Below, piece after piece: positions 1 to 16,202 of a stretch of DNA of 16,507 nt. This DNA comes from a virus. Its lineage: Duplodnaviria > Heunggongvirae > Uroviricota > Caudoviricetes. Below the pieces are notes generated by a model that saw nothing but the letters and a program-made list of their open reading frames with translations, made no database searches and was not told the DNA's origin. The translations under genes were made by a program, and so were the position numbers. How positions within the stretch are numbered: position 1 is the stretch's first letter; every line of letters starts with the position of its first letter. The stretch is from the IMG/VR virus record IMGVR_UViG_2740892442_000006, one strand, 5' to 3'.

Positions 1-114
1 ACCCTATGCATCGAAGAGTATTATTCTGCTACCGGAATTTATAATTATGATGATGCTGATGAGCAAACTGAGTTACTTAAAAATGCATTAAGGGACTATA
101 AAATGGCTCACTAG
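1..114 (+). CDS. Possible 3' end of an upstream ORF that continues beyond the window start; product unknown
   Basis: Frame 1 is open from position 1 to a TAG at 112-114 (37 codons, ...LRDYKMAH*). Too short to assess further. Confidence 0.3.
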   Translation, partial: TLCIEEYYSATGIYNYDDADEQTELLKNALRDYKMAH

Positions 115-183
115 TGAAAAGAGGCTAACTTGTATTAGCTCAAACTTGATCTTACACTTTTACTGCATAGGGCTTAACCTAAG

Positions 184-218
184 CTGACAGTCCGCTCTGT
201 GCCAGAAGCGGACGTTAG
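184..218. repeat. Palindromic repeat, copy 1 (internal hairpin GTCCGCT-N10-AGCGGAC)
   Basis: Read directly: CTGACAGTCCGCTCTGTGCCAGAAGCGGACGTTAG. The 7-bp arms at 190-196 and 207-213 are exact reverse complements. An inverted copy lies at 4194-4228 and a partial direct copy at 3007-3023. Confidence 0.7.
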
Positions 219-288
219 CCATAGTGAATAATGCACAATGCAGTGACTGGATACAGATATGGGAAACTATTACTTTTAAAGTCCGACA

Positions 289-316
289 TTCTTGATTCTT
301 GATTCTTGATTCTTGA
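289..316. repeat. Tandem heptamer repeat (TTCTTGA)x4, followed by a degenerate fifth unit TTACTTA at 317-323
   Basis: Read directly: four perfect head-to-tail copies, about 120 bp upstream of the ORF at 435. Confidence 0.9.
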
Positions 317-434
317 TTACTTAATCTAAGTAACCGTGCATTTTTATCCAGCTTCAACTATCCAATGAACCAGTATGTTCTGTAACATAAAAGCAGGCTA
401 TTTAGCCACAATCAATTGATAATTAGGCACTTAT

Positions 435-1487
435 ATGAAACTAAAAAAAATGCTTGAAATGGATTTCATCAAGGAGTTTCAAGAGCACCTAGAAACTGAC
501 TTTGAGCATGAACTCTTACATGCCAGTCTTCGCAACTATTGTTCTCATGGTAATCCTCTGCGCTTCAACAACTTTGCATTTGCAATACGTGAGCTAATAA
601 ATCATGTGCTGAAACGACTGGCACCAAATGACAGAGTTATGGCGTCTCCATGGTTCACTAAAAACAAAAATAACGCCACTGTTACCCGTAAACAGCAAGC
701 AAAATACATCGCCCAGAAGCATATACCCGATCAACTTCTTGATGATGTAGCTATCGAAAGACTAGATGATGGTATAGCATGGTTCAATAAAAACTATTCT
801 TCTTTAAACGATTACACCCATATTAGCGAACATTCATTTGATAGTAACCCCAAACAGTTTTTTGAGAGTGCTAAACTAATAATAGAACTGTGTAACATAA
901 TATTCGATACCTTCGATGAACTTGAGCGTGTTATTACCGAATCAATAATCGAGGAAGTACAGAATGAAGTTACTGACATCACAATGAATAATATCCCTGA
1001 CGAACTGGATATATTATCTTCACAAACAACTGTTGATTGGTGCAATGTTGAATCCATTGAGTTGCTGAACCTTGACGAAAATTATATTTATCTTTTGGTG
1101 CGCGGAATAGTTGAAATTACTAGGCAATACGGGCGTGGTGAGGATTACTTTGCACAGCAAGATTCTTATCCCTTCAAGTTTGCAGTCTCTATTCGCACTG
1201 ATAATTTCAATTTAATAGCACCATTACTTAACACTGTAGTAGTGGATACAGGCTCATGGTATGACGATGGCGAAGGATCTGCTCATTATGACACAATTTA
1301 TACAACCTCCAGATTTTTGGAGATGATCTCACATATAAAAATTAAACCAAAAACAAAGAGAAGATTGTTTCCTGAGCTTAGTACAGTAGTAACACTAGGG
1401 ATTCATGAAAGTGAAGGTATATCAGAATCGGTCGTCCCAGAAATATGTCATCTAAATCAAGGAAGCTTCAATTTAACTGAATTTTAG
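435..1487 (+). CDS. Hypothetical protein (cargo ORF A, 350 aa); no family recognised; contains an R-x4-H motif (RNYCSH, residues 33-38)
   Basis: Long ORF with an ATG start and a weak AGG upstream; first gene of a co-directional cluster in the AT-rich island. No ATPase or other catalytic signature recognised. Confidence 0.75.
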   Translation: MKLKKMLEMDFIKEFQEHLETDFEHELLHASLRNYCSHGNPLRFNNFAFAIRELINHVLKRLAPNDRVMASPWFTKNKNNATVTRKQQAKYIAQKHIPDQLLDDVAIERLDDGIAWFNKNYSSLNDYTHISEHSFDSNPKQFFESAKLIIELCNIIFDTFDELERVITESIIEEVQNEVTDITMNNIPDELDILSSQTTVDWCNVESIELLNLDENYIYLLVRGIVEITRQYGRGEDYFAQQDSYPFKFAVSIRTDNFNLIAPLLNTVVVDTGSWYDDGEGSAHYDTIYTTSRFLEMISHIKIKPKTKRRLFPELSTVVTLGIHESEGISESVVPEICHLNQGSFNLTEF

Positions 1488-1503
1488 GATTATCTATGGA
1501 GAG

Positions 1504-2442
1504 ATGAAAATGTCTAATAAGATCTATAGCCTACAAAGAATGCCTACTGAAGCATTTAAGATATTTGCAATGTCATTGCCACATGGGCCTAATTATGGTA
1601 ATGCGGAATTACTTTCCGCTTGGTCAAATGAAAAAGGGCTTGGATATGGTGCAGTCCTTCAATACAGCAAAAATTCATATGGCCTTGTTGTGCTCAGGCG
1701 ACGGGAAGATTATGTGCTGGTACCTCTCGAGCATGAGATGTGTTTTACCGAGCAGGAGGCATTGGTGCATCTTGATAAGCACCTTTCAGCCGGAGGAGAT
1801 TTATTACCGATTCCATCTGGGCAATCACGTAGAGCCCGACTGGATCATGTTGGTGAGCGGAATGTTTGTCAGGCATTTATACAATTATCGTCCACGATAA
1901 AGTACCGAGGAGCATTTCATTTAATTGTCGAGCTCTATCTGGCATTACCAAAACCTGATGATAACTTCAGAACCGATCTCCAGACCCAAGGATTCAACTC
2001 TAGAATCTGGGAGCTATACCTTTTCGCATGTTTTAAAGAGCAGGGAATTAAAGTTTTTCAAGATTATCCATCTCCGGATTTTATGCTCATGAACGGTAAT
2101 AACAAAGCATATGTTGAGGCGGTCACCGCGAATCCAACTGGTCCGGGCAGCCTAAAGTTGCCTCAAACACAATTCCCCCCCGGAGATCGATTAGCTCGCA
2201 CAGCAGGTGATATGGCAGCACGGTTCGCTAAGACCATCAGATCTAAACTCCAGAGAAAGTATGAAGAACTACCGCATGTTAAAGGATTTCCATTTGCAAT
2301 CGCTATAGCGGATTTTAGCGGTGGGGGCACTATGGTCTGGTCTCGCGAGTCACTTCCAACCTATTTGTATGGGCAAACCGCACATACAGTCAAAACATCC
2401 AAAGGTATGAAGCTGCTGCATTATCAATTGAAAAGCTTTTAG
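1504..2442 (+). CDS. Hypothetical protein (cargo ORF B, 312 aa); family unknown
   Basis: ATG at 1504 preceded by GGAGAG at 1496-1501, 16 bp after the ORF A stop. The downstream frame-0 ORF overlaps its 3' end, so B and C may be one gene split by a frameshift. Confidence 0.75.
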   Translation: MKMSNKIYSLQRMPTEAFKIFAMSLPHGPNYGNAELLSAWSNEKGLGYGAVLQYSKNSYGLVVLRRREDYVLVPLEHEMCFTEQEALVHLDKHLSAGGDLLPIPSGQSRRARLDHVGERNVCQAFIQLSSTIKYRGAFHLIVELYLALPKPDDNFRTDLQTQGFNSRIWELYLFACFKEQGIKVFQDYPSPDFMLMNGNNKAYVEAVTANPTGPGSLKLPQTQFPPGDRLARTAGDMAARFAKTIRSKLQRKYEELPHVKGFPFAIAIADFSGGGTMVWSRESLPTYLYGQTAHTVKTSKGMKLLHYQLKSF

Positions 2443-2504
2443 GCCATGTAAATATTCCGGCAGGACTATTTAACCACCCAGAGATTGAAAATTTATCTGC
2501 TATC

Positions 2505-2903
2505 TTGTTTAGTAATGCTGGAACATTGCCAAAATTCCAGCGAATGGCAATCCAAGCTGAATTTTCCTCACCTATTGTGAAAGCCCGCAGGGTTGGGATT
2601 TTATTTGATAGGACTGAAGGGGCCTTGGAACCAATTGACTTCGATCTAGATATTCAATCGCCTGAATATATTAATCTTTGCGATGGCAAAGAATTTTGGT
2701 GTTTTGAACTTGAAGTATTTCATAACCCTAATGCTGCTTATCCAATGTCCCATGATTTCCTGCCGGGGGCAACACATTGGTTTGAACACAATGGAGAGAT
2801 CATCTGTGAGACCCAATGGAAAAACCAGGTACTTGCATCAGTAACCGAGTTTAGTATTGTTCCAGATGTCGCCGATAAACTCAAAGCCAAGGAAAAGCCG
2901 TGA
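2505..2903 (+). CDS. Hypothetical protein (cargo ORF C, 132 aa as listed); possibly the C-terminal continuation of ORF B
   Basis: The frame is open from 2319 and reads like protein (...YEAAALSIEKLLGHVNIPAGLFNHPEIENLSAILF...), but has no ATG/GTG/TTG before the TTG at 2505 and no convincing Shine-Dalgarno before 2505 or the ATG at 2544. Confidence 0.5.
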   Translation: MFSNAGTLPKFQRMAIQAEFSSPIVKARRVGILFDRTEGALEPIDFDLDIQSPEYINLCDGKEFWCFELEVFHNPNAAYPMSHDFLPGATHWFEHNGEIICETQWKNQVLASVTEFSIVPDVADKLKAKEKP

Positions 2904-3006
2904 TTGCTTGATGCAAGCATATTCTTGAAAGAAGAAAATTGACAAGATTTAAAACTAATAATGAAGGGGGGAATGTTACGAGGTTGTCAGGGCTGCAACA
3001 GCAGCC

Positions 3007-3023
3007 CTGTGTCAGAAGCGGAC
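3007..3023. repeat. Partial direct copy of the palindromic repeat (CTGTGTCAGAAGCGGAC), just after an 8-bp-stem hairpin at 2988-3009
   Basis: 16 of 17 bases match copy 1 at 197-213. Hairpin CAGGGCTG-caacag-CAGCCCTG read directly. Sits between ORF C and the ORF at 3080. Confidence 0.6.
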
Positions 3024-3079
3024 ATTTTAAGCATTCGAGTGTAAGGTCTGTTTTTTAATTTGTAATTTTAGGAGGTAAC

Positions 3080-4033
3080 ATGCCAAAGAAAAGACGGTCT
3101 ATTAGCCAGGTAAAAGAAGACATTTCAATCAGGGTTCTGCGGGAAAAACTACCTCGCGAATGGGTCGTACATAGCTATGGCGCTGACTATGGTATTGATT
3201 GCGTTGTTGAATTATTTGATTTTATTGATGACAGTGAAAGTATTGCAGAAACCCTTGGTGAAAACTTCTTTGTACAACTAAAATCTTCAGATTGTATTGA
3301 ATATTGTACACGTAAAGCCTATGCTCGTGGAAATGTAACCAAAGGAAAGTTAACAGAAGATAAAAGCGATTTTGTCGAAATCCCTGTCGCAAAATTCAAG
3401 TTAGATATATCAGACATTTTGACTGTTCAGTCTATAGGTATTGCAATTCCAGTATTATTGATACTAGTTGACACTAATACAGAAAAGGCATTTTTTATTT
3501 GCCTTAATGATTACATAGATAAAGTTCTCATACCAGAAGACCCGAATTATTCTAAAAAAGACTCAAAGACTATATATATACCTCTTGAAAATGAAATTCT
3601 GGATGATGAAGATGCGCTTGTTCCATTACGTGCATATGGTAAAAGATCAAAAATGTATGGCGCATTCTCACTTTTTAACTATCAATTAAAAGAAATAAAC
3701 CGATTACAAGGTAAAGCGGCCGTACAATTTCCTGTCTCTTTCGATGAAGCTATAGAGATGGTAAATAACTTTATTGTAATTGCTCTTAGACAAGATATAT
3801 GGTCTGGTCATGAATTTTGGAAGCCGATGGTATCGAGCCAAAAGGAGTTGATCCAACTTCAAATAGATATTGATAAAGAGGTAAAACCTGAACATTATGA
3901 ACATTTTTTGAGTTACTGTTCCGAAGTGGTTTGGCATAAGTTAACAAATCTTTCAAATATGTATGAGGAGCTTGTTAGAGAATGGTTCATGCCAACCTTG
4001 CTAGCGACATTAACATCAGCCCGCCCTAAATAA
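3080..4033 (+). CDS. Hypothetical protein (cargo ORF D, 317 aa) with an N-terminal PD-(D/E)xK-like nuclease-fold motif candidate (DUF4365-like by recollection)
   Basis: Strong RBS AGGAGGT at 3068-3074, six nt before the ATG. N-terminal motifs in order: DYGID, VVELFDF, FVQLKSS, consistent with a D...E...QxK restriction-endonuclease-like core. Family assignment is from memory, not a search. Confidence 0.8.
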   Translation: MPKKRRSISQVKEDISIRVLREKLPREWVVHSYGADYGIDCVVELFDFIDDSESIAETLGENFFVQLKSSDCIEYCTRKAYARGNVTKGKLTEDKSDFVEIPVAKFKLDISDILTVQSIGIAIPVLLILVDTNTEKAFFICLNDYIDKVLIPEDPNYSKKDSKTIYIPLENEILDDEDALVPLRAYGKRSKMYGAFSLFNYQLKEINRLQGKAAVQFPVSFDEAIEMVNNFIVIALRQDIWSGHEFWKPMVSSQKELIQLQIDIDKEVKPEHYEHFLSYCSEVVWHKLTNLSNMYEELVREWFMPTLLATLTSARPK

Positions 4034-4193
4034 TAATAGCAATGCTACGCAAAAGCATCCTAGCCCTAAATTCTTAAATAAGGGCTTCATATCAAATTGA
4101 AGCCTTTGTGAACAATAGAAACAACACTAAAAGACACCCCTATCACATTTAGTTGAATAGAAAAATAATAATGCGCCCACGACGATACAATTA

Positions 4194-4228
4194 CTAACGT
4201 CCGCTCCTCGCTCAAAGCAGACTGTCAG
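4194..4228. repeat. Palindromic repeat, copy 3, inverted relative to copy 1
   Basis: The reverse complement of 4194-4228 matches 184-218 at about 30 of 35 positions, by hand alignment. A further ACTGTCAG motif lies at 4253-4260. Confidence 0.65.
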
Positions 4229-4293
4229 ATTTGATTGCATTTTGCCTACGCAAACTGTCAGTTCGAGCCTGAGCTAATACAGCTAACTGGATG

Positions 4294-5397
4294 TTAGCCT
4301 TTTTTAATTTTATTTTTAGATTGTTCAATGTGATGATTTAACACTTCTCTCTTTGCCTCTTCATAGGTTAGCTCTCCATTGATTACCTTATTTTTTATTT
4401 CATTAAAAAATGAGGAGCCTTTGGGATCTTTACTTGATAAAAAAAGACTGGCTTCAGCTCTCCGAAAAGCTTCTTTCCTTGCTTCTATAGAAAATGAATT
4501 AGCAGGGTTATTTTTGTTCATAAGTTGAAGTGCCTTATTATTTATATTCGGGATGTTTTTATCTACAAGAGTTAGTCTTAACTCCGAGAATTTATTTCCT
4601 GATATTTTATAACACTGATTTTCATTTTTTTCAATATAAAGAGATTTGCTTTCTGCGCTACCACATGTCGTAGATGTTCTTGCATCAAGAAAAATAAACT
4701 TTTCTTGAAATCTTTCAATATATTTCATTGCTGTCATGCTAATAATAAAAAGAGCAACTGACACAGCAAAAAGGGATAAGCCTGATACTAAACGATTAAA
4801 ATTAAATTTCCTTTTAATAACTAATGAACTGGCTAGATTGACCATGTTATAGGGGACCATAATTATGAGTCCTATTAATATTATTTTTTCAGGAAGATTG
4901 TTCACTTGTATATGATGTTGAGCCAAGTTTCCAATATATACTGAAATCATAGAGGATATTACTATTTTTGCTGGGGATACATCTCGCAAAAATATGTATA
5001 TATAGACTGTAGTTGCACAAATCATTGCTCCTATTGGAAATGAGAGCATGAAAGCATAAGCTAATGTTGAGTAATTAAGATTTTCTGGGGCTATACCATA
5101 AGCTATGTCAAGCTTAAACTTTGCGATCCATAAGCATACTGAATATGTAAAGCCAGTTACGCCCCACTTAACCACTGTATTATTAAATACTTTATTTAAT
5201 AAATCACGATATCCTATGTATACACTGGTTAATAAAGCTATAGATGATAGAAAAATTGGAGCGGCAATGTATATATTTTCTAGCCATAATGGGTTTTCTA
5301 CAATCAAGTATCCAAAAGGTATTAAGTATATTATAGCCAATAGTTGAGGGTTGTTTAATTTGGATGATGCGTCAACCAAATTATTTTTATATTCCAT
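4294..5397 (-). CDS. Multi-pass inner-membrane protein (about seven hydrophobic segments in the N-terminal ~225 aa, then a ~140-aa charged soluble C-terminal domain); function unknown
   Basis: 367-aa ORF with AGGA about 7 nt upstream of the ATG. Starts 9 bp after the stop of the integrase at 5407-6480, on the same strand. Very AT-rich. Confidence 0.8.
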   Translation of the reverse strand: MEYKNNLVDASSKLNNPQLLAIIYLIPFGYLIVENPLWLENIYIAAPIFLSSIALLTSVYIGYRDLLNKVFNNTVVKWGVTGFTYSVCLWIAKFKLDIAYGIAPENLNYSTLAYAFMLSFPIGAMICATTVYIYIFLRDVSPAKIVISSMISVYIGNLAQHHIQVNNLPEKIILIGLIIMVPYNMVNLASSLVIKRKFNFNRLVSGLSLFAVSVALFIISMTAMKYIERFQEKFIFLDARTSTTCGSAESKSLYIEKNENQCYKISGNKFSELRLTLVDKNIPNINNKALQLMNKNNPANSFSIEARKEAFRRAEASLFLSSKDPKGSSFFNEIKNKVINGELTYEEAKREVLNHHIEQSKNKIKKG

Positions 5398-5406
5398 ATA
5401 ACGTCC

Positions 5407-6480
5407 TTATTTCAACTTTAACGCCAAATCTTCAGCTTTTGGATGATAATACCGCATTAGCATTCTTGGATCTTTATGTCCTGTAATTTTGGTCAGTTCA
5501 TGCATAGGGAAAATTTCAGCAAGTCGAGAAGTTGCTTCATGTCGAAGGTCATGAAATCTTAAATCTTTAAGGAATGATTCATCACATAATGAGTTTGTTT
5601 TCTCGTATCGTTCTCTGGCTCGTTTTACAGCTCGGTCAAAAGCTCGGGTAATCGCGTCTGCACGCATATCAAAAACCTTATCAGCAGCTGGCTTAGAATG
5701 TTCCTTGAGACTGGACAGTATCGTGATGGCTTTCGTTGATAAAGGGACATCGCGGGCATTACCATTCTTAGTATCCGGCAGATGTGCAACTCGCCGATCA
5801 AGATCGATAAAGCGCCATCGAAGATCTGCGATTTCGCTACGGCGCATGGCTGTCTCTAACGCCAGAAGAATGATTGCTGGCAATACTAATGAATGTGTTG
5901 CGGCGATGATATGTTCGATCTCGTTGGCTATTTCCTTTCCTGACGTAACACCGGTTTTCTCAGAAACTACAGGCAGCGCTTCCAGGCGTCTGGTCCTGGA
6001 GTTCTTGGGTTGAGGTTTGCGAATGGCCTCTACGGGGTTCAGCAGGCTCTCCATGCCCCATTCTTTCCGCGAAACGTTGAATACATGAGAAAGTAAGGCC
6101 AAACGCCTTAAAACGGTTGCAGGGGCATAGATTTTCAACCATTCATCTCTCAGCTTGGCGACATCGGCACTCCTGATGCTGGCCATATAGTTTTTCGCCA
6201 GCTGAGTGCCTTTTAGTATCCGCACCAATGATTGGTCTTGCACTGCCCCTTTTTTGTCGGGAACAATCTCTTTTTCATATCGCGTTAGGGCTTCATACAA
6301 TGTCGTAGATTCCGCTTCGCTGCGGCTAAGCCAAACTCCTCTCGCCATTTCTGACTCGATCATTTTGGCCCAAGCTTCTGCTTCTACTTTGGTGTTAAAG
6401 GTTTTGGTTTGAGAGGGAAAACCTCGTTTACGGATTTGAGCTTCCCATTGGTAGTTACCACGTTTGCGTATAGTCGCCAT
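5407..6480 (-). CDS. int: Tyrosine-type site-specific integrase (island integrase)
   Basis: C-terminal catalytic signature FHDLRHEATS...MRYYHP (H-x-x-R-H box and tyrosine). The ORF track starts at a TTG at 6510; the ATG at 6480 (MATIRKRGNYQWEAQIRKRG...) is the more likely start. Confidence 0.9.
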   Translation of the reverse strand: MATIRKRGNYQWEAQIRKRGFPSQTKTFNTKVEAEAWAKMIESEMARGVWLSRSEAESTTLYEALTRYEKEIVPDKKGAVQDQSLVRILKGTQLAKNYMASIRSADVAKLRDEWLKIYAPATVLRRLALLSHVFNVSRKEWGMESLLNPVEAIRKPQPKNSRTRRLEALPVVSEKTGVTSGKEIANEIEHIIAATHSLVLPAIILLALETAMRRSEIADLRWRFIDLDRRVAHLPDTKNGNARDVPLSTKAITILSSLKEHSKPAADKVFDMRADAITRAFDRAVKRARERYEKTNSLCDESFLKDLRFHDLRHEATSRLAEIFPMHELTKITGHKDPRMLMRYYHPKAEDLALKLK

Positions 6481-6568
6481 TTCTGTCTGATTCCTAACGA
6501 ACTGTGGCAATATTGTGGCAAAAAATCCATTTAAATTCGATAGGTATTGATTTTACAAGATCAATTTA

Positions 6569-6617
6569 CGCATTCGTAATGCGAAGGTCGTAGGTTCGAC
6601 TCCTATTATCGGCACCA
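6569..6617 (+). tRNA. 3'-terminal 49-nt fragment of tRNA-Thr (anticodon CGU); not a complete tRNA; likely an att-core direct-repeat copy
   Basis: Anticodon stem-loop with CGT at 6575-6577, T-arm GGTTCGACTCC, 3' acceptor strand and CCA. Matches the 3' part of enterobacterial thrW as I recall it. The upstream sequence has no 5' acceptor strand (GCCGATA) or D-arm. Confidence 0.8.
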
Positions 6618-6631
6618 TTTAAATCAATAAG

Positions 6632-7795
6632 TTACACATCATTAGTACCTTCCTTATTTTTTGACTGGGACAAATTTGGGACCGATGGGTTCAGGATCGA
6701 GTCTATTTGCCGTGCGTGTTCGGTAAGGTGATTAGGTGCAAGGTGAGCATATCGACGAACCATTTCGATAGACTCCCACCCTCCCATTTCCTGTAACACT
6801 GACAACGGGACTCCGGCTTGAACCAGCCAACTTGCCCAGGTGTGTCTCAAGTCGTGAAATCTGAAATCATCAATACCAGCCCGTCTCAGCGCCGCTTTCC
6901 AGGCTGTGTTTGCGTCATACCGCATCTTCCTTACTGTTGGCGCTTTCGTTCCGTCTGGTTTGGTACAGCTTTCCTTGTACACAAATACCCAACGGTGATG
7001 ATTCCCGATTTGTTTTTTCAATACGCGACATGCAGTATCATTCAGCGCAACGCCAATTGCGCGGTTTGATTTACTCTCTTCCGGGTTTATCCATGCCACC
7101 CGGCGCTGCATATCTATTTGTTGCCATTCAAGGTTGATGATGTTCGAGCGTCTTAAACCTGTTGCCAGTGCAAATTCAACAACAGACTTTAATGGCTCCG
7201 GACATTCATCAATCAGCCTTTGTGCTTCATGGGGCTCCAGCCAGCGGATCCGTTTATTCTTTGGTTGAGGCACTTTAATAATTGGTGCCTTATCCAGCAT
7301 TTTCCATTCACGCTCTGCGGCTCTTAGTAGGGCCTTTATAAATGAAAGATGCGTAGCCTTCGTTGCAACGGACGCTGGTTTTGGCGTGTATTCTGGAACA
7401 GGTTTCCCTTTTTTTCTGCATGCTTCTGCCCTGAGTTTCCAGTTTTCCTCATGACGCCGGTTCGTCATTTTCTGCATTGCTGAATAAATTTTTGATTCAG
7501 TAATGTCTCTTAGTTGCATTCCTGCGAAATGTTGAAGCCAGAATCCGATCCGGCTTTTGTCATCGTCCAGTGATTTTTTATGTGCTTTCTCTTCAAGCCA
7601 CCTGACACACGCTTCCTCGAACGTTATATCAGGTATTTCACCAAGTTTGCTGACCCGCCATGCTTCAGCCTTTAGCTTGTCATGGAGTTCTGTCGCCTGC
7701 CTTTTGTCCTTTGTTCCAAGAGACTGTTTAAATCTTTTACCGTTCGGCAATGTGAAACTGGCGTACCATATTTCACCTCTGCGGAAGAGTGACAT
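6632..7795 (-). CDS. int: Lambdoid (P22/SfV/e14-type) phage integrase
   Basis: N-terminus [34 protein letters not shown] is typical of this enterobacterial prophage integrase group; catalytic [10 protein letters not shown]...VRRYAHL. GAGGAA RBS. The 3' end lies 15 bp from the tRNA-Thr fragment. Confidence 0.92.
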
Positions 7796-8022
7796 TTTCT
7801 TTCCTCTGTTATGCCATCACCCGCGCTCACCTGGACAGTATGCAGCGGAGACTGAAGAGCCGCAATGCAGGCTTGTCGTGTTGTGAGGTAAGGAGATTTA
7901 TTCTTAGTGGGATCTTTGCGTGTTGCCTGAAGACGCCCTGTGCGTATCCAGTTAATGGCAGTCGGTCTGGATATCTTGAGAAAATGACAGGCCTCATCGA
8001 GTGTGAGGCTGTATGGCTCCAT
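7672..8022 (-). CDS. xis: Excisionase / AlpA-like HTH protein (about 117 aa from the ATG at 8022)
   Basis: [31 protein letters not shown] is a helix-turn-helix excisionase-like N-terminus. The ATG overlaps the upstream stop (ATGA). The 3' end overlaps the integrase start by about 124 bp in another frame, so the true stop is uncertain. Confidence 0.6.
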
Positions 8023-8327
8023 TATTTCACCTCTTGCTGTGACATTGTTGAAAAATGGATACCAGCTCGTTGCTGCCAGACGATCCAACCGAGAGTCATA
8101 TCCCATGCCATGTATTCGTTATCGCCGTTTTTTGCTCTCCGACGATCTACTAAGTCACCGAAACGCTTTTCCATGAATAATTCATAAGCTTCGCGTTCAT
8201 CTGGTTCTACTTCCAGCGATAGGAGTGCGATTTCATAAGCACGGCGCTCAATATCGTCTCGCACGTCAAGGCTGCTGATACGCTCTTTAATTTCTTTAAT
8301 CAGTTCTTTGTCGGTAAAAGTGATCAT
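8022..8327 (-). CDS. Hypothetical prophage early protein (101 aa)
   Basis: Coding-like codon usage; start overlaps the upstream stop (TAATG) and its stop overlaps the xis start, indicating one coupled operon. Confidence 0.65.
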   Translation of the reverse strand: MITFTDKELIKEIKERISSLDVRDDIERRAYEIALLSLEVEPDEREAYELFMEKRFGDLVDRRRAKNGDNEYMAWDMTLGWIVWQQRAGIHFSTMSQQEVK

Positions 8328-8689
8328 TATGCTCCAGCCTCCGGTGCTTTTGGCATTATTGCCCAGTGAGTGATATTGACGTTTTCAAGGTCCCCGACCT
8401 GAAATGTCCACTGCCATTCTCCGGTTTCTTTTTGTCCCCAGGTGTACCAGAGAGAACGCCTGCCAATTAGCCAGCCTTCTCCGTTAGCATCGAATAACAA
8501 AACACTTTCATTTGCTGGTGGCAGTTCAGCTGACACTGGTATTACTTTGTTTTCCTGTGCTGCACATTTAGCTTCAAGCGCATCGAATTTACGCACCAGG
8601 TATTCAGCATCTGTTTCATTTACTTTCAGATCTCGCGGTACACATCTCCCACGAAGAAACCCTTCCATTTCGAAAACATTCATGCGCAT
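8327..8689 (-). CDS. Hypothetical prophage early protein (120 aa)
   Basis: ORF in the same minus-strand operon, overlapping both neighbours by a few bases. Confidence 0.65.
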   Translation of the reverse strand: MRMNVFEMEGFLRGRCVPRDLKVNETDAEYLVRKFDALEAKCAAQENKVIPVSAELPPANESVLLFDANGEGWLIGRRSLWYTWGQKETGEWQWTFQVGDLENVNITHWAIMPKAPEAGA

Positions 8690-9243
8690 TTGCGTAACTC
8701 CGATAACTCGTTAAAACGTTCCATAAACATCCCGTAGGCATGGCCCGGTGCCTGTGGAATCACTTTGAACATCTCTGTTGCCGGGATACCTTCCAGTACA
8801 GGCCAGAAAGAGCCATCATCAAGCCCGAGATCGCGGCGTTCGGTTGCCAGCATAATGAGATCGGCATATTTCACTGGCGTGCTCATAACAGGAGGTAACC
8901 CGTATTTCTCACGTATTACGGCGTCTATTTTTTCTTCCATCCGTTTATAGTCAGGAAGAAGTCGTTTCAGTGGTGCGGGGATGTCCTGGCAATATGCTTC
9001 TGTTGCATCATGCATTAAAGCTTCAAAAGCAAATTCCTGTGGCACCAGCTGGCTGCAAAGCACCGCATGTTGGGCGACACTGTAGAAGTGTGAAAGATGT
9101 CCTGCAAAGCGACAGATATTTGAAAGGGAAACCGCGATATCGTTAATAACGATGTCGTCTTTATTTATCCTGTCATAATAAAAATGCTTCCCGGAAAAAG
9201 TTTTAATAAATGACATTTTGTTCTCCACGTATATGCGCTGCAC
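8680..9243 (-). CDS. HD-domain phosphohydrolase (YfdR-like, as found in enterobacterial prophages)
   Basis: Ordered H...HD motifs (SVAQHAVLCSQL then ALMHDATEAY) in a protein of about 187 aa; first gene of the leftward operon ending in xis and int. Confidence 0.65.
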   Translation of the reverse strand: MQRIYVENKMSFIKTFSGKHFYYDRINKDDIVINDIAVSLSNICRFAGHLSHFYSVAQHAVLCSQLVPQEFAFEALMHDATEAYCQDIPAPLKRLLPDYKRMEEKIDAVIREKYGLPPVMSTPVKYADLIMLATERRDLGLDDGSFWPVLEGIPATEMFKVIPQAPGHAYGMFMERFNELSELRKCA

Positions 9244-9340
9244 CGCGCTGAATTCGGGTAAAAGGAAGCCCTCACCGTCCGGCGATTATTGAGTCAATTA
9301 CATTTCCATAAATGCCCCCGTAGGGCGGTTAGTTTCTCCA

Positions 9341-9427
9341 CAAAACAGAGAAGAACACCTGCGGTGGCAGCCGCCCGGATGGATTGGGTTATGAGCCCGT
9401 CGTCCGGTGATGCTCTTCTCTGTTTTG
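9341..9427. repeat. Inverted repeat: 17-bp arms (CAAAACAGAGAAGAACA at 9341-9357 and its complement at 9411-9427, one mismatch) around a 53-bp spacer
   Basis: Read directly, in the 435-bp region between the divergent minus-strand and plus-strand prophage operons. Confidence 0.7.
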
Positions 9428-9473
9428 TAAAAAGGACGGTATCCGCCTGACGGCTAATCAGGCATATCACCAG

Positions 9474-9677
9474 ATGGTGAAGCTGGGGATCGTCGAGCAG
9501 CGCGAACGATACAGCCGTACCGCGATTAACAACATCAAAAAATTCTGGTCGCTGACAGCGAAAGGCTGCATGTTCGGCAAGAACATCACCAGTCCTGCAA
9601 ATCCGCGCGAGACGCAGCCGCATTTCTTCGAATCCCGATTCCCTGAGCTGTTAAAGCTGCTCGATACCGTTCATTGA
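9474..9677 (+). CDS. Possible small ORF (67 aa) just upstream of the DUF968-like gene
   Basis: ATG start, coding-like third-position bias, stop 1 bp before the next gene; no recognisable family. Competes with a minus-strand ORF that I rejected. Confidence 0.3.
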   Translation: MVKLGIVEQRERYSRTAINNIKKFWSLTAKGCMFGKNITSPANPRETQPHFFESRFPELLKLLDTVH

Positions 9678-9678
9678 G

Positions 9679-10674
9679 GTGACCGTGAGAGCACTACTGA
9701 CCCCTGAAATAGCCCCGCGTATGGGGATCGTATTGTTCAGACCCGGTTCAGAGCTGATGCCCCTGTTTATGCAGGGGCGTGTCCTGCTGGAGCCTGAGCC
9801 GGAACGTTATTCATCTTTCGCCAGTGGTGCCGTTCCCGCGGCATCACAACCGCTGGCGGATGATCCTGCCGTTCGAGCCGTGTTCTGCAATGAGGCAGTG
9901 ATCCGTCGTGCTGGTGGCGTGGAATGTCTTGAAAGCTGGTTACTTCGTGAAAAGGGCTGTCAGTGGCCTCATTCCGACTGGCACAGCGAGAACATGACCA
10001 CAATGCGACACGCGCCGGGCGCGATCCGTCTGTGCTGGCACTGCGATAACCAGCTGCGCGATCAGTTCACGGAACGGCTGGAATCAATGGCAACGGATAA
10101 CTGTGCCCGCTGGGTGTTGTCTGTTGTGCGTCGGGATCTCGGTTTTGATGACAGTCACGTTGTGACAATGCCGGAACTGTGCTGGTGGCTGATTCGTAAT
10201 GACCTGGCGGATGCCTTACCGGAAAGTGCAGCCCGTAAGGCACTGAGATTACCGAAGCCTGTTGTGCCGTCTGTCACCCGGGAAAGTGACCTTGTGCCTT
10301 CGGTTCCTGCCACCAGCATCATCCAGGATAAGGCGAAAAAGGTGCTGGCGCTGAAAGTGGATCCGGAGTCGCCGGAGTCTTTTATGTTACGCCCAAAACG
10401 TCGCCGCTGGGTTAATGAAAAGTACACGCGCTGGGTTAAGACACAGCCGTGTGCATGTTGTGGAAAGCCTGCTGATGATCCCCACCACCTGATAGGCCAC
10501 GGTCAGGGTGGGATGGGTACAAAAGCGCATGACCTCTTTGTGTTGCCTTTGTGCAGAAAGCATCACGACGAGCTGCATGCGGATACCGTGGCATTTGAAG
10601 AGAAGTATGGCTCCCAGCTGGAGCTGATATTTCGTTTTATCGATCGTGCGCTGGCAATAGGCGTACTGGCGTAA
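9679..10674 (+). CDS. Prophage protein with a C-terminal HNH-like Cys/His cluster (DUF968-like)
   Basis: 331-aa ORF with a GTG start. C-terminus CACCGKPADDPHHLIGHGQGG...CRKHHDELH is a zinc-finger/HNH-type signature. Sits immediately upstream of Q, as in the nin region of lambdoid phages. Confidence 0.65.
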   Translation: MTVRALLTPEIAPRMGIVLFRPGSELMPLFMQGRVLLEPEPERYSSFASGAVPAASQPLADDPAVRAVFCNEAVIRRAGGVECLESWLLREKGCQWPHSDWHSENMTTMRHAPGAIRLCWHCDNQLRDQFTERLESMATDNCARWVLSVVRRDLGFDDSHVVTMPELCWWLIRNDLADALPESAARKALRLPKPVVPSVTRESDLVPSVPATSIIQDKAKKVLALKVDPESPESFMLRPKRRRWVNEKYTRWVKTQPCACCGKPADDPHHLIGHGQGGMGTKAHDLFVLPLCRKHHDELHADTVAFEEKYGSQLELIFRFIDRALAIGVLA

Positions 10675-10687
10675 GTGGAGAACGAGC

Positions 10688-11416
10688 ATGAACCTTGAAG
10701 CTTTACCAAAATATTACTCCCCAAAATCTCCAAAATTGAGTGATGACGCACCGGCGACAGGCTCGGGTGGTTTAACAATTACAGATGTGATGGCTGCGCA
10801 GGGGATGGTGCAGTCGAAAGCACCGCTTGGGTTTGCCTTATTCCTGGCAAAAGTTGGTGTTCAGGATCCTCAGTTTGCGATTGAAGGTCTGCTCAATTAC
10901 GCGATGGCACTGGATAACCCGACATTGAACAAATTGAGTGAAGAAATCCGGTTACAGATCATCCCTTACCTTGTGAATTTTGCCTTTGCTGATTATTCCA
11001 GGTCTGCGGCAAGTAAGGCTCGCTGTGAGCATTGTGCTGGTACTGGATTTCATAATGTATTGCGCGAGGTGGTGAAACACTCCAGAAGCGGGGAATCTGT
11101 TATCAAGGAAGAGTGGGTGAAGGAACTATGTCAGCATTGTCATGGTAAGGGAGAAGTCAGCACAGCGTGCAGAGGGTGTAAGGGTAAAGGTATTGTCCTG
11201 GATGAAAAAAGGACCCGGCTTCATGGCACGCCTGTTTATAAGATTTGTGGGCGTTGCAATGGAAACCGATTTAGCCGTTTACCAACCACACTGGCGCGGA
11301 ATCATGTCCAGAAGCTGGTACCAGACCTGCCGAAGATCTGGGAAAAGTCACTTTCCGCCCGTCCATCACGGCTTATGTGGTGGGAGATGACTGCTTTGAC
11401 CAGCGCGATCGCCTGA
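10688..11416 (+). CDS. Q: Late-gene antiterminator Q homolog (lambda Q family); C-terminus probably altered by a deletion junction
   Basis: N-terminus MNLEALPKYYSPKSPKLSDD...TDVMAAQGM parallels lambda Q as I recall it, followed by CxxCxGxG zinc-finger repeats. The last ~30 codons overlap an N-like reading frame. Confidence 0.75.
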   Translation: MNLEALPKYYSPKSPKLSDDAPATGSGGLTITDVMAAQGMVQSKAPLGFALFLAKVGVQDPQFAIEGLLNYAMALDNPTLNKLSEEIRLQIIPYLVNFAFADYSRSAASKARCEHCAGTGFHNVLREVVKHSRSGESVIKEEWVKELCQHCHGKGEVSTACRGCKGKGIVLDEKRTRLHGTPVYKICGRCNGNRFSRLPTTLARNHVQKLVPDLPKIWEKSLSARPSRLMWWEMTALTSAIA

Positions 11417-12531
11417 TTGACGCGCTGAATAAACCCGGTCCCGGCACGCTTGTCCACCCGACATACGGTGAGTTGAAAGTCTGTGTTGACGGGGAAGTTC
11501 GGGTCAGCACATCGAAGAGTGAAGGGCGTATTGTCCGCTTTGACCTGAAGTTTGTCGAAGCGGGAGATCTCTCTTACCCCACATCAGGCGTGGCGACGGC
11601 GCAGACGCTGATGTCATCCTGTTCTGCACTGGATGACTGCATCAGTGACAGCTTCAGCGGTTTCAGTATCGATGGCGTGGCAGATTTTGTGCAGAACGAC
11701 GTCGTCGGTAATGTCGGCACAATGCTTGGGTATGTTTCTGATGCGATGAAAGTGGTGGATTCTGCCGTATCGGATGCCGCCAGGCTGTTGCAGGGGGATA
11801 TCTCGGTACTTCTTCCGCCGCCATCGTCAGGCAAAAATTTCGTTGAGCAGGTGCAGAAAATGTGGCGTACCGGGAAACGCCTTTATGGTAACGCCAGCGA
11901 CCTGGTCACCATGATCAAAACGCTTTCCGGTGTCAGCCTTGGCAGCGATCTGCAACCGCGCGGCGTCTGGAAAACGGACAGTAAAACCACCGCCACGGCG
12001 ACGCAGCAGCGTAACGTGGTTGCCAGCACCCTTCGTACGACCGCAATCAGCGAAGCGGCGTATGTCGTCACACGATTGCCTGCGCCCACAACTTCCGCGG
12101 TGATGCAGAATGCCACAGTGGGGCAGTCAACAACACCCGCGCAGAGCACCGGCTGGCCTTCTGTCACGCATCCGGCACTGAACAATGCACCGGCGGTGAA
12201 AAACACGGTTGACCTGCCAACGTGGGAAGAACTGACCGACATTCGCGACACACTGAATACGGCAATTGATAAGGAGTTGTCCCGTACAACCAGTGATGCG
12301 CTGTTTCTGGTGCTGCGCCGGGTGAAAGCAGATCTGAATGCGGATATCAACACGCGCCTTGAACAGTCTGCACGGATCATTCAGCGCACGCCGGATGAGG
12401 TTTTACCCGCGCTGGTGCTGGCGGCGACCTGGTTTGATAACGCGGCGCGTGACGCGGACATTATCCGGCGTAATGCCATTACGCATCCCGGCTTTGTGCC
12501 GGTGATCCCTCTGAAGGTGCCAGTGCAATGA
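11377..12531 (+). pseudogene. Mu gp43 (N)-like DNA circularization / tail protein, 5'-truncated
   Basis: Similar in length and position to Mu N, but about 100 residues shorter than I recall for the family. The frame is open from 11275 and overlaps the Q 3' end. GTG start only. Stop overlaps the next start (ATGA). Confidence 0.6.
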
Positions 12532-13606
12532 ACGACAATGTCACGCTACGGGTAAATGGCCGGGAGTGGAATGGCTGGACATCGGTGCGCATCGGTGCCG
12601 GTATTGAACGGCTGGCGCGGGATTTCAGTGTGGAGATCACCCGCCAGTGGCCGGGAGATGAGGGTATCACCACGCTTCAGCCGCGCATTAAAAACGGTTC
12701 AAAAGTGGAAGTGCTGATTGGTGATGAGCTGGTGATCACCGGCTGGGTGGAGGCGACGCCCGTTCGTTACGATGCCCGTTCGGTCAGCACCGGTATTGCC
12801 GGACGTAGTCTGACGGCTGACCTGATTGACTGTGCAGCCGAACCGACACAGTTTAACGGACGCTCGCTGGTGCAGATTGCGCAGGCGCTTGCTGCGCCTT
12901 TCGGCATTGAGGTGGTGAACAGCGGTGCGCCGTCGGGTGTTATTCCTGATGTTCAGCCTGATCACGGTGAAACGGTGATTGAGGTAATAAACAAAATACT
13001 CGGTCAGCAGCAGGCGCTGGCTTACGACGACCCGCACGGCAGGCTGGTGATTGGCGGTATTGGCTCAACGCGGCACATACCGCGCTGGTACTTGGGGAAA
13101 ACATCCTTTCCTGCGATACGGAGAAGAGTATCCGGGAGCGGTTTTCTGTTTACCAGGTGGCGGGGCAGCGTGCCGGAAACGACGATGATTTCGGTGAGGT
13201 CACCACCACCGCGCTGCGGGCCCGCACAGAGGACGCATTTATTGCCCGTTACCGTCCGATGTATATCAGGCAGACAGGGCAGGCCACGGGGGCAGGCTGT
13301 ATTGCGCGTGCTGACTTTGAAGCCCGACAACGGGCGGCGCGGACGGATGAAACCACCTATGTGGTGCAGGGCTGGCGACAGGGTAACGGTACGCTGTGGC
13401 AGCCCAACCAGCGGGTGATTGTCTTTGATCCGGTCTGTGGTTTCGACAATACCGAACTGCTTGTCTCGGAAGTCACGTTTACTCAGGACCAGAACGGCAC
13501 CCTGACGGAAATCCGTGTCGGCCCGCCTGATGCTTATCTGCCTGAACCCGAAGCCCCCGGCGCGCGGAAAAAGAAAAAAGCCAGAGTACAGGAGGACCCG
13601 TTCTGA
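12528..13606 (+). pseudogene. Mu gp44 (P)-like baseplate hub / tail protein, interrupted by a frameshift near 13065-13080
   Basis: Frame 0 (12528-13418) and frame 2 (open upstream of 13157, to 13606) each read like protein: ...GGIGSTRH then ...TALVLGENILSCDTEKSIRERFSVYQVAGQ... The combined length of about 359 aa fits the family. Confidence 0.6.
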
Positions 13607-14154
13607 TGAGGACGATTGAAGCCATGCAGCGACAACTTCTCGGCCTGATTGCGCGGGCAGTGGTGAAAAGCATCAGTGCCGCCACGAAATGTCAGACCGT
13701 GGATGTGTCCCTGATTGCCGGTGAACCCAAAGCCGGGGTTGAACATCTTGAACCCTACGGTTTTACCGCAAGGGCAAACAGCGGCGCGGAAGCGGTGGTG
13801 TTGTTTCCGGATGGCGACCGTTCTCATGCGGTGGTTGTTACGGTGTCGGACCGGCGCTACCGCCTGAAAGGGTTGCAGACGGGTGAGGTGGCTGTCTATG
13901 ACGATCAGGGGCAGTCTGTGACGCTGACCCGGGAGGGGATCGTGGTGGACGGTGCAGGTAAAACGATCACGTTTCGCAATTCACCTAAAGCACGTTTTGA
14001 AATGGACCTGGAAGTGACAGGACAGGTGAAAGACCTGTGCGACTCCAGCGGCACTACCATGTCAGCGATGCGGCTTGCCTATAACGGGCATCGTCACAGA
14101 GAGAACGGTCAGGGCAGTAACACCGACAAACCGGATAAAGCGATGGAGGCATGA
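13606..14154 (+). CDS. Mu gp45-like baseplate assembly / spike protein (gpV-like)
   Basis: About 182 aa, translationally coupled to its neighbours (TGATG upstream, ATGA downstream); position and size match a Mu-type baseplate module. Confidence 0.65.
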   Translation: MRTIEAMQRQLLGLIARAVVKSISAATKCQTVDVSLIAGEPKAGVEHLEPYGFTARANSGAEAVVLFPDGDRSHAVVVTVSDRRYRLKGLQTGEVAVYDDQGQSVTLTREGIVVDGAGKTITFRNSPKARFEMDLEVTGQVKDLCDSSGTTMSAMRLAYNGHRHRENGQGSNTDKPDKAMEA

Positions 14155-14579
14155 TGGAACTGTGGCTGACGGTGAACGGTAAACGCACCTGCGCCAGCGC
14201 ACCGCTGGATCCGCTGACCCGCGCCGTGGTGATTTCCCTGTTTACCTGGCGGCGGGCGGAGCCTGATGACAACGCCGACGTCCCGATGGGATGGTGGGGG
14301 GATACCTGGCCTGCGGTACAGAATGACCGTTACGGCTCCCGACTGTGGCTGCTTCAGCGCAGCAAACTGACCAATCAGCTGGTGCAGACAGTAAGGGGGT
14401 ATATCCGCGAATGCCTGCAATGGATGATTGATGACGGCGTGGTGTCCCGTATTGATCTGGATATCCGCCGCACCGGGATTAATGAGCTGGGTAACAGTAT
14501 CACCCTCTGGCGTCGTGACGGACCGGTAATGATTTCTTTTGATGATCTGTGGAGTGCGATAACGCATGGCGGACAGTGA
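14151..14579 (+). CDS. Mu gp46-like baseplate protein
   Basis: About 142 aa, overlapping both neighbours; order gp45-gp46-gp47-gp48 is conserved. Confidence 0.65.
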   Translation: MMELWLTVNGKRTCASAPLDPLTRAVVISLFTWRRAEPDDNADVPMGWWGDTWPAVQNDRYGSRLWLLQRSKLTNQLVQTVRGYIRECLQWMIDDGVVSRIDLDIRRTGINELGNSITLWRRDGPVMISFDDLWSAITHGGQ

Positions 14580-15624
14580 ATTTCAGCGCCCGACGCTGGC
14601 AGAAAATATCAGTATGCTCCGTAACGATTTATTCGCCAGGCTGGACGTCAGCGACACGCTCCGGCGCATGGATGAAGACGTGCGGGCAAAGGTGTATGCG
14701 GCGGCGCTGCATACGGTTTACGGGTACATCGATTATCTGGCAATGAACATGCTGCCTGACCTGTGCGATGAGTCCTGGCTGGCGCGACATGCTGCGATGA
14801 AACGGTGTCCGCGCAAGGGGGCCACGGCTGCCAGCGGGTATATGCGTTGGGAAGGTGTCAGCGATGGCCTGAAGGTGACCGCCGGGAGTGTTATTCAGCG
14901 CGATGACCTGGTTCAGTACACGGCAACTGCCGATGCAACCAGCTCCGGTGGTGTCCTGCGCGTGCCGATCGCCTGCTCAAGTGCAGGCGCGGTCGGTAAC
15001 GCTGACGACGGTACGTCATTAATCCTGGTCACGCCGGTTAATGGTCTGCCGTCTTCCGGCGTGGCAGATACCCTTACAGGCGGATTTGATACTGAAGAGC
15101 TGGAAACGTGGCGCGCCCGCGTCATTGAGCGGTATTACTGGACGCCTCAGGGCGGGGCTGACGGGGACTATGTCGTCTGGGCTAAAGAAGTGCCCGGCAT
15201 TACCCGCGCATGGACATACCGTCACTGGATGGGAACGGGAACTGTCGGTGTGATGATTGCCAGCAGTGACCTGATTAATCCCATTCCGGAAGAATCAACG
15301 GAAACGGCAGCAAGACAACATATCGGGCCACTGGCCCCGGTGGCAGGCTCTGATTTGTATGTATTCAGGCCGGTGGCACATACGGTGGATTTTCATATCC
15401 GCGTGACGCCGGACACACCGGAAATACGGGCTGCCATTACCGCGGAGTTGCGTTCGTTCCTGCTGCGTGATGGTTATCCGCAGGGAGAACTGAAGGTATC
15501 GCGTATCAGTGAGGCGATTTCCGGTGCGAACGGGGAATACAGCCATCAGTTGCTTGCACCGGTGGACAATATCTCCATTGCGAAAAACGAACTGGCGGTA
15601 CTGGGGACGATTTCATGGACGTGA
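14566..15624 (+). CDS. Baseplate J-like protein (Mu gp47 / e14 JayE-like)
   Basis: About 352 aa, in the expected position between the gp46-like and gp48-like genes. Confidence 0.7.
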
Positions 15625-16199
15625 CAAACGATGATTACATCCGCCTGTTATCGGCACTGTTGCCGCCCGGTCCGGCGTGGTCAGCCAGCGATCCGGCGAT
15701 TGCCGGTGCGGCACCGTCATTAACCCGTGTTCATCAGCGTGCGGATGCCCTGATGCGGGAGCTGGATCCGCGCACCACCACTGAACTGATAAACCGCTGG
15801 GAGCGTCTGTGCGGTCTGCCGGATGAATGTATTCCGGCGGGAACGCAGACCCTTCGCCAGCGTCAGCAACGGCTGGATGCGAAGGTTAACCTGGCGGGCG
15901 GCATCAACGAGGATTTTTATCTTGCACAGCTTGCTGCCCTGGGCAGACCAGATGCCACCATCACGCGATACGACAAAAGCACGTTCACCTGCTCATCGGC
16001 CTGTACTGACGCGGTGAATGCGCCGGAATGGCGGTATTACTGGCAGGTCAACATGCCAGCCGCCACCAACACCACCTGGATGACATGTGGCGATCCCTGT
16101 GATTCCGCACTGCGTATCTGGGGTGACACCGTTGTCGAGTGTGTGCTTAACAAACTCTGCCCGTCGCATACCTACGTAATTTTTAAATATCCGGAGTAA
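15615..16199 (+). CDS. Mu gp48-like tail protein (DUF2313 / YmfQ-like)
   Basis: About 194 aa; N-terminus [23 protein letters not shown] resembles the YmfQ family as I recall it; immediately precedes the tail fiber gene. Confidence 0.65.
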
Positions 16200-16202
16200 T
16201 CC

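Follow-up and report, generated by a model that had tools for sequence, protein, structure and literature searches.

The DNA analysed here, referred to below as the window, is a stretch of 16,507 nt from a Caudoviricetes record (IMGVR_UViG_2740892442_000006) and matches E. coli TUM10008 at 99.97% identity; the matching TUM10008 locus is cited in its own coordinate system, L001. Positions 1-5406 of the window hold the right-hand 5.4 kb of the cargo of a 19.6-kb island, as described using the TUM10008 annotation, Pfam and PADLOC (no strand assigned). These cargo genes, given here by position without strand, are an Argonaute-associated nuclease gene (435-1487), a PD-T7-1-like gene that is split in the window by a 1-nt deletion (1504-2903), a gene for a DUF4365 protein (3080-4033) and a VbhA-like/hypothetical gene pair (4294-5397). 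The left island is a defence island that includes Lamassu, a Septu-like pair and the nuclease gene beside the PD-T7-1-like gene. In TUM10008 it carries IS1 insertions and retains transfer genes only as remnants, and no excisionase was identified in it.

At the right end of the island, a 357-aa integrase is encoded on the minus strand at 5407-6480 and reads into the island (Pfam Phage_integrase PF00589, E=3.6e-26). Its catalytic residues were assigned by alignment with lambda Int and correspond to R212, K235, H308, R311, H333 and Y342. No arm-binding domain was detected in this protein by Pfam, and a PDB sequence search gave no match at E<=1e-3. A promoter and terminator scan of positions 6380-6720 returned nothing, including any sigma-70-like promoter upstream of the gene. 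The ATG lies 88 bp from the tRNA fragment described below and the gene reads away from it, as had been recorded in the first-pass annotation.

The fragment occupies positions 6569-6617 on the plus strand (CGCATTCGTAATGCGAAGGTCGTAGGTTCGACTCCTATTATCGGCACCA) and is identical at 49/49 positions to positions 28-76 of the intact tRNA-Thr(CGU) gene thrW of TUM10008. It begins at the second base of the anticodon arm and continues through the variable loop and the T arm to the 3' acceptor strand and the terminal CCA, which agrees with the initial description of a piece holding anticodon arm, T-arm and CCA without a 5' half. The 5' half is absent: no tRNA was found in the window by ARAGORN, and the Rfam tRNA model RF00005 scored the fragment at 22.3 bits, below the gathering threshold of 29.

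The second integrase gene, at 6632-7795 on the minus strand, reads toward the fragment and encodes 387 aa (Phage_integrase, E=3.2e-48). The protein, earlier named P22-type, shows 100% identity to SfIV Int and aligns with P22 Int along the full 387 residues at 90% identity; its distance to the fragment, given before as 15 bp, is 14 bp, counted from the CCA to the stop codon. Its residues R-K-H-R-W-Y align with lambda Int, and the six catalytic positions are conserved in both integrases. The PGAP start is at 7750 (372 aa), but it is the 387-aa form that aligns with the phage proteins end to end. The 5' end of the gene is overlapped by an excisionase gene (7672-8106, minus strand; Pfam HTH_17), whose product is identical to the SfIV excisionase at 144/144 positions. 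The remainder of the window (8107-16507, no strand assigned) is the left-hand part of a 19.0-kb defective SfIV-like prophage, as judged from the TUM10008 annotation and comparison with the full-length prophage of strain 14EC007. It contains yfdT/S/R, a truncated KilA-N gene, a DUF968 gene, baseplate genes and a truncated antiterminator gene fused to a truncated DNA-circularisation gene, and the element is devoid of immunity, replication, lysis and head genes.

Attachment-site sequences of both elements meet at the fragment. On its right, the 14 nt between the CCA and the integrase stop codon (6618-6631, plus strand) are the start of an SfIV-type P' arm: they are identical to the thrW-int junction of strain 14EC007 and differ at one position from the right arm of SfIV attP (TTT here, TTA in SfIV). 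Alignments with SfIV attP, P22 attP and the far-right copy of the core described below delimit an identity block at 6572-6627 (plus strand), made of 46 nt of tRNA followed by TTTAAATCAA; BLAST pairs window positions 6572-6635 with L001 40226-40289. The 46-nt core equals the att site of 46 bp published for SfIV, SfI and SfV (PMC3851460). The left arm of SfIV attP matches the DNA to the left of the far-right core copy and the right arm matches the window from 6618 on, so that both attP arms are found at the ends of the right element, together with an Int and an Xis orthologous to the phage proteins; the attP-int geometry is also that of P22. The predicted attP of this element is L001 40120-40271 joined to the window from 6618 on.

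To the left of the fragment, positions 6481-6568 (plus strand) form the P arm of the left-island att site and carry two TGTGGCAA repeats (6503-6510 and 6514-6521). The same pair, with its 11-nt spacing and orientation kept, recurs in the P' arm, 82-100 nt past the intact thrW gene. Both arms thus have pairs, and 4/7 occurrences of TGTGGCAA in 42.6 kb are at most 100 nt away from one or other att site. A variant island with 89% identical int DNA has a P arm that is 96% conserved, and its P' homology ends directly after the second TGTGGCAA repeat. The pairs are candidate arm-type binding sites of the left integrase, judged from their placement and conservation, and a predicted attP of the left island was assembled by joining window 6418-6617 to L001 1680-1879. 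Enterobacter and Pantoea have homologues of this integrase at 92-99% identity, and in these a tRNA-Thr fragment is retained 88 bp upstream. In the Pantoea locus L011, the only one checked for mismatches, this fragment has three differences in the acceptor stem, presumably the tRNA sequence proper to that species. Upstream of remoter homologues (58-69% identity; Yersinia, Thiobacillus, Pseudomonas), no tRNA-like match was found within 600 bp, and target specificity is therefore claimed only for homologues of at least 92% identity.

In TUM10008, three co-oriented copies of the core are present on the plus strand, at L001 1631-1679, 21270-21318 (window 6569-6617) and 40226-40271. The first belongs to the intact thrW gene (L001 1604-1679), which follows proA and lies 19,639 bp to the left of the fragment, 13.0 kb outside the left edge of the window; an intact tRNA-Thr beyond this edge had been predicted from the orientation of the fragment. 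The third copy, 18,953 bp to the right of the fragment, is 46 nt long with 1 mismatch and is directly followed by chromosomal backbone common with K-12 (yagP/pao). The intact tRNA and an additional copy, whose absence had been named beforehand as refuting the interpretation, are thus both present. The G-to-A mismatch of this copy was considered as a crossover marker and found uninformative, SfIV and P22 attP both having G. A comparison with empty thrW sites had been proposed at the outset. When both elements were excised in silico, thrW joined to the yagP-side backbone gave a sequence that agrees at every base with the unoccupied sites of E. coli B and C (100% identity to BL21 and to E. coli C). 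For both elements, an intact, regenerated tRNA on one side is matched by a co-oriented 3' fragment on the other side, as expected for insertion into the 3' end of a tRNA gene, and the locus as a whole corresponds to the definition of a tandem array (PMC4383910), with at least three co-oriented core copies and an integrase and a fragment for each member.

Occupation of the site was surveyed in 5,426 complete E. coli genomes. An empty thrW site was found in 948 genomes and an SfIV/P22-type int directly at thrW in 1,495; the left integrase is present in about 100, and the exact junction of the window in 16. The right end of the left island is joined straight to the backbone in 32 genomes, and strain PSS-13 has the left island without an SfIV-type module. 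Conversely, the int protein of the right element (WP_001132557.1) stands directly on an intact thrW in strain 14EC007, where it heads a complete prophage. With three core copies, matching attP arms, intact catalytic residues, and single-occupancy and empty states in other strains, the 49-nt piece is, with high confidence, the att scar inside a tandem array of two members at thrW next to proA, where it is the attR core for the left island and at once the attL core for the right element. The tandem occupation of one att site proposed in the first-pass annotation is thus borne out. Its statement that two unrelated elements share the junction holds for the elements, which are different and independent; it does not hold for the integrases, which are distant homologues (30% identical across 244 aa of their catalytic domains).

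The order at the locus is proA, intact thrW, the 19.6-kb defence island with the 357-aa integrase at its far end, the 49-nt thrW fragment, the 19.0-kb decayed SfIV/P22-type prophage with int and xis first, the 46-nt thrW fragment and yagP/pao. On this reading, each element entered by tyrosine-integrase recombination of an attP that contains the tRNA 3' half with the tRNA gene itself or one of its copies, an event that regenerates the tRNA at the left and pushes the old 3' half rightward. The middle site is accordingly a hybrid in which the shared core has the P arm of the left island on one side and the P' arm of the prophage on the other, and both int genes face it only because the island has its int at the right end and the prophage has its int at the left end.

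Several other readings of the fragment and of the block around it were weighed. That the 49-mer matches by chance, or is a dispersed repeat unconnected to integration, can be set aside entirely: chance is excluded by the 0 matches obtained in 100 shuffles, and a common dispersed repeat, the circumstance named beforehand as fatal to the interpretation, is ruled out by a median of 1 copy per genome and a maximum of 4 in 5,017 E. coli genomes, the annotated match being thrW and the additional copies, where examined, standing at element boundaries. It is barely conceivable that the fragment is part of a real but unusual tRNA gene, the 112-nt 'tRNA-Ser' placed by PGAP at 6506-6617. RefSeq does annotate this tRNA-Ser in TUM10008 and in most genomes with the left integrase, but neither ARAGORN nor the sub-threshold Rfam score supports it, the anticodon arm is that of a tRNA-Thr, and of the first seven bases only five find a pairing partner in the 3' acceptor strand. 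Moreover, the 5' part of the annotated gene is the conserved P arm with its TGTGGCAA repeats, whose conservation is explained without a tRNA function. The 38.6 kb from thrW to yagP could also be a single composite element with two integrases and an internal pseudo-att, acquired and moving as a unit. The two parts are contiguous and their junction is the same in 16 genomes, and composite mobilisation of accreted elements has been described for some ICE/CIME systems. Against this, each part is found alone at thrW with exact att boundaries in other strains, the right part has its own complete SfIV-type attL and attR, and in strain E4 this right part is combined with another left island. The exact version of the right part occurs in only 2 genomes, as against 16 for the junction, which indicates independent assortment and leaves the single composite element very improbable.

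Within the two-member array, the order of arrival has to be approached through other strains, since both histories yield an identical product and junction sequences alone cannot give it. Strain E4 also has this decayed prophage, at 100% identity across the 6.1 kb that were compared and with an unchanged set of annotated genes up to yagP/pao, standing behind a different island with a 439-aa integrase; the prophage remnant therefore probably predates both islands. This suggests that the prophage was resident first and that the island later used the regenerated thrW. The reverse, in which the island came first and an SfIV-type phage entered its displaced fragment (attR) and not the intact tRNA, is unlikely but deserves some weight, as the displaced fragment contains the SfIV core in full (46 nt) along with the native downstream TTTAAATCAA and would be a usable target. 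Besides the E4 configuration, what speaks against it is that SfIV-type occupants are about 15 times commoner than the left island, and that the repeats of the left island are perfect (49/49) while those of the prophage have a mismatch. Experiments have shown SfI and SfX to integrate in tandem at thrW, the newcomer using the resident's attL, that is, the regenerated tRNA (PMC3306764), which likewise favours the prophage as first resident.

With respect to mobility, both elements may still be able to excise separately; alternatively, given the genes lost from the right element and the IS1 insertions and remnant transfer genes of the left island, both may be fixed in place. Because the two integrases act on one and the same stretch of ~46 nt of tRNA and the right element has an intact SfIV-type Int and Xis, it is conceivable that the array is a cross-mobilisable composite, in which one integrase joins thrW and the far-right fragment (a 38.6-kb block) or a superinfecting SfIV/P22-type phage mobilises the island in cis, but this is considered very improbable.

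Both members of the array can be compared with known elements. The right element has the Int-Xis-attP module of SfIV/SfI/SfV and P22, with thrW next to proA as target and with the 46-nt core of SfIV/SfI/SfV, but differs from these phages in being a defective remnant. In place of the gtr O-antigen genes next to attP, it carries AbiTii, DUF6650, a type II restriction-modification pair and a GIY-YIG gene. The left island resembles CP4-6 of K-12, which also targets thrW, has a repeat from tRNA position 28 (annotated CP4-6 start 262898), and carries its integrase at the distal right end, reading away from the displaced fragment, with yagP/pao beyond. Membership of the CP4-6/IntF family was nevertheless rejected: the CP4-6 IntF has 466 aa and is only 25% identical to the left integrase over 189 aa (E=2e-6), and the two elements differ completely in cargo. 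The left island is one of CP4-6 architecture and core boundary with a different integrase lineage. For the array itself, the nearest parallel is SfI and SfX in S. flexneri serotype 1d, which are arranged head-to-tail at thrW and separated by an att site, the newcomer being the one nearer the tRNA. There, however, the members are two related functional phages and the combination is laboratory-made, whereas here an island with a distantly related integrase and a prophage remnant are combined in natural isolates. With an integrase and a correctly oriented tDNA fragment for each member, the locus also corresponds to the operational definition of the Islander/TIGER tandem arrays, from which it does not differ in kind.

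Stacked elements at thrW are an ordinary and well-documented situation, and tandem arrays at tRNA genes are catalogued routinely. The present analysis places the boundaries of two elements exactly, at a known hot spot of integration, and has little importance beyond correct annotation. In this respect, the false 'tRNA-Ser' recurs in RefSeq at the junction in most of the ~100 genomes with the left integrase. The thrW gene of E. coli serves at least four integrase lineages as a target, namely the SfIV/P22-type, IntF, the 357-aa integrase described here and the 439-aa integrase of strain E4. The left integrase is a thrW-specific and apparently uncharacterised enzyme with a compact predicted att site of ~240 bp, and is a candidate addition to integrase toolkits.

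The 49-nt thrW fragment occupies positions 6569-6617 of the window on the + strand (CGCATTCGTAATGCGAAGGTCGTAGGTTCGACTCCTATTATCGGCACCA) and matches positions 28-76 of the intact tRNA gene at every base. The first-pass annotation had described it as a tRNA 3' copy devoid of its 5' half and flanked by two integrase genes, which is accurate within one base, coordinates included; its left gap of 88 bp also stands, and the right gap, given as 15 bp, is 14 nt in the sequence. ARAGORN detected no tRNA over the whole window, and the fragment scored 22.3 bits with the Rfam tRNA model for a threshold of 29, so that on model score it is part of a tRNA rather than a gene.

Across the 2.6 kb surrounding the fragment, identity with the E. 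coli TUM10008 chromosome is 100%, and RefSeq contains the region with its annotation. In TUM10008, proB, proA and the intact tRNA-Thr(CGU) gene are followed by a 19.6-kb island with the 357-aa integrase gene last, the 49-nt fragment, int, xis and a decayed prophage, and then by a yagP remnant, paoD and paoC. Intact thrW was found 19,639 bp upstream of the fragment, which bears out the earlier inference that it lies beyond the left edge of the window. A further core copy, which had been sought in the flanking sequence, is present 18,953 bp downstream (46 nt, beginning with ATTCG, with one G-to-A difference), and the K-12 backbone adjoining yagP aligns with the DNA directly after it. The possibility that the 49-mer is a dispersed repeat was rejected: E. 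coli genomes contain a median of one copy and a maximum of four, figures that also show extra copies to be common.

Over its whole length the window is 99.97% identical to TUM10008, the differences being five single-base deletions (window 405, 2411, 4532, 9322 and 13071), all of them located in short runs of G or C and none inside the fragment or its junction. The deletion at 2411 splits the gene for a 464-aa PD-T7-1-like protein, that at 4532 joins a VbhA-like antitoxin ORF to its 296-aa neighbour (ORF 4294-5397), and that at 13071 disrupts a baseplate gene; such a pattern resembles homopolymer sequencing error more than a biological difference. A 112-nt "tRNA-Ser" called by PGAP in RefSeq (window 6506-6617) consists of the P arm of the left island plus the thrW fragment. 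This call recurs in TUM10008 and in most genomes with the left integrase, and is probably a recurrent annotation artefact, given the ARAGORN and Rfam results.

The right integrase ORF (387 aa, 6632-7795, - strand; Pfam Phage_integrase, E=3.2e-48), whose 3' end faces the fragment across the 14-nt gap, encodes a protein 100% identical to the Shigella phage SfIV integrase and 90% identical to P22 Int across all 387 residues; in alignment with lambda Int, R212, K235, H308, R311 and Y342 are kept and W replaces H333. The excisionase ORF upstream of and overlapping int (7672-8106) is 100% identical to that of SfIV. By alignment, the right arm of SfIV attP runs from window 6618 on into int, and its left arm matches the DNA directly left of the third core copy. 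The tRNA-derived identity block of this element is 46 nt, and identity reaches 10 nt further (TTTAAATCAA), into native downstream sequence; a 46-nt att block has been published for SfIV, SfI and SfV (PMC3851460). In strain 14EC007, the gene for an identical integrase protein directly abuts intact thrW and opens a complete lambdoid prophage, compared with which the right element has lost the immunity, replication, lysis, packaging and head genes. At window 10688-12531, two truncated genes, one for an antiterminator and one for DNA circularisation (Mu-type tail), run directly into each other. The lysis, terminase and head genes were lost in the large internal deletion that this fusion marks, and the exact deletion is common to just one other complete genome, strain E4. 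Where gtrABC O-antigen genes adjoin attP in SfIV and P22, the remnant carries AbiTii, DUF6650, a type II restriction-modification pair and a LEM-3-like GIY-YIG gene (33735-39766 of the TUM10008 locus, beyond the window); the accessory (moron) genes beside attP look to have been swapped.

The left integrase ORF (357 aa, 5407-6480, - strand; Pfam Phage_integrase, E=3.6e-26) starts 88 bp from the fragment and reads away from it. Its product is 30% identical to SfIV-type Int over the catalytic domain and 25% identical to K-12 IntF, no integrase of the phage collection exceeds about 40% identity to it, and by these values it is a distinct lineage; R212, K235, H308, R311, H333 and Y342 of lambda Int are all kept. 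Homologues in Enterobacter and Pantoea (92-99% identity) likewise have a tRNA-Thr 3' fragment 88 bp away, a conservation that supports specificity for thrW; three acceptor-stem differences in the fragment of the Pantoea locus that was checked presumably reflect that species' own tRNA sequence. The island shares its layout with CP4-6 of K-12: a distal integrase gene directed into the element and a repeat that begins at tRNA position 28. At 48-66 nt to the left of the fragment (window 6503-6521) there are two TGTGGCAA repeats with a spacing of 11 nt, and an identical pair with the same spacing lies 82-100 nt right of intact thrW (1761-1779 of the TUM10008 locus); together they account for four of the seven occurrences in 42.6 kb. 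A diverged island, whose cargo differs and whose int DNA is 89% identical, shows 96% conservation of the P arm and loses P' arm homology directly after the second TGTGGCAA repeat. We infer that the pairs are candidate arm-type integrase-binding sites bounding an attP of about 240 bp.

The cargo of the left island includes Lamassu LmuA/LmuB (PADLOC E-values down to 0) and a Septu-like PtuA ATPase and HNH nuclease pair, both within 2534-7947 of the TUM10008 locus, beyond the window. A three-gene block at window 435-4033 encodes an Argonaute-associated nuclease (Pfam pP_pnuc_1/2, PADLOC Aga_Nuclease), the PD-T7-1-like protein, in which no Pfam domain was found, and a DUF4365 protein; the annotation shows no PIWI/Argonaute gene next to the block, which may be an uncharacterised defence combination. 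TraJ, TrbJ and TrbL remnants are also present, with two IS1 copies in TUM10008. Since Lamassu and the Septu-like pair are carried as well, the left element is, as read from its gene content, a defence island in which the cargo varies and a HigA-TraJ-TrbJ-TrbL-int backbone is conserved.

Reconstructed junctions were queried against 5,426 complete E. coli genomes. For the comparison with empty-thrW strains proposed at first pass, 948 genomes have an unoccupied site, and the reconstructed sequence is matched at 100% in BL21 and E. coli C. An SfIV/P22-type int directly follows intact thrW in 1,495 genomes; the left integrase, always a single chromosomal copy, is present in 107, the right end of its island is joined directly to the backbone in 32, and the window's own junction occurs in 16. 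Other arrays were also observed: in E4 (18515-20046 of its locus) a 439-aa integrase island with Ag43 and CbtA/CbeA precedes the same decayed prophage; in 2017.01.04CC (21084-33525 of its locus) a variant left island comes first, next a satellite-like element that has a capsid gene and an integrase of its own, and after it CP4-6-like genes; in PSS-13 unrelated island remnants come after the left island. The integrase lineages that use this tRNA segment number at least four.

Each element integrated by recombination of its attP with a thrW core, restoring the tRNA on the left and pushing the earlier 3' half rightward; the middle site is a hybrid of left island P arm, shared core and SfIV-type P' arm. 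Separate excision of each element is possible in principle, because each retains a complete attL/attR pair, and the products would be exactly the single-occupancy states of other strains. Arrival order cannot be read from the junction sequences. That the prophage was resident first and the island later used the regenerated thrW is more likely, since E4 has the same decayed prophage following another island, genomes with the SfIV-type occupant far outnumber those with the left island, and SfI, when added to an SfX lysogen, integrated at the attL of the resident (PMC3306764). The reversed history, against which the same three observations stand, is improbable.

The thrW gene is among the E. coli tRNA genes targeted most often (PMC7545054), the SfIV/P22-type module and its thrW site have been characterised (PMC3851460), tandem integration at thrW has been obtained experimentally (PMC3306764), and Islander, in a set of 3,919 islands, counts 125 arrays with at least two members (PMC4383910), with a criterion for resolving tandem arrays under which this region also resolves (PMC4383910). 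Reading the region as tandem occupation is therefore correct, and the structure is of an ordinary kind that was already known. What it adds is confined to details: a left integrase that appears to be uncharacterised, its candidate arm sites, and the repeated PGAP "tRNA-Ser" call.
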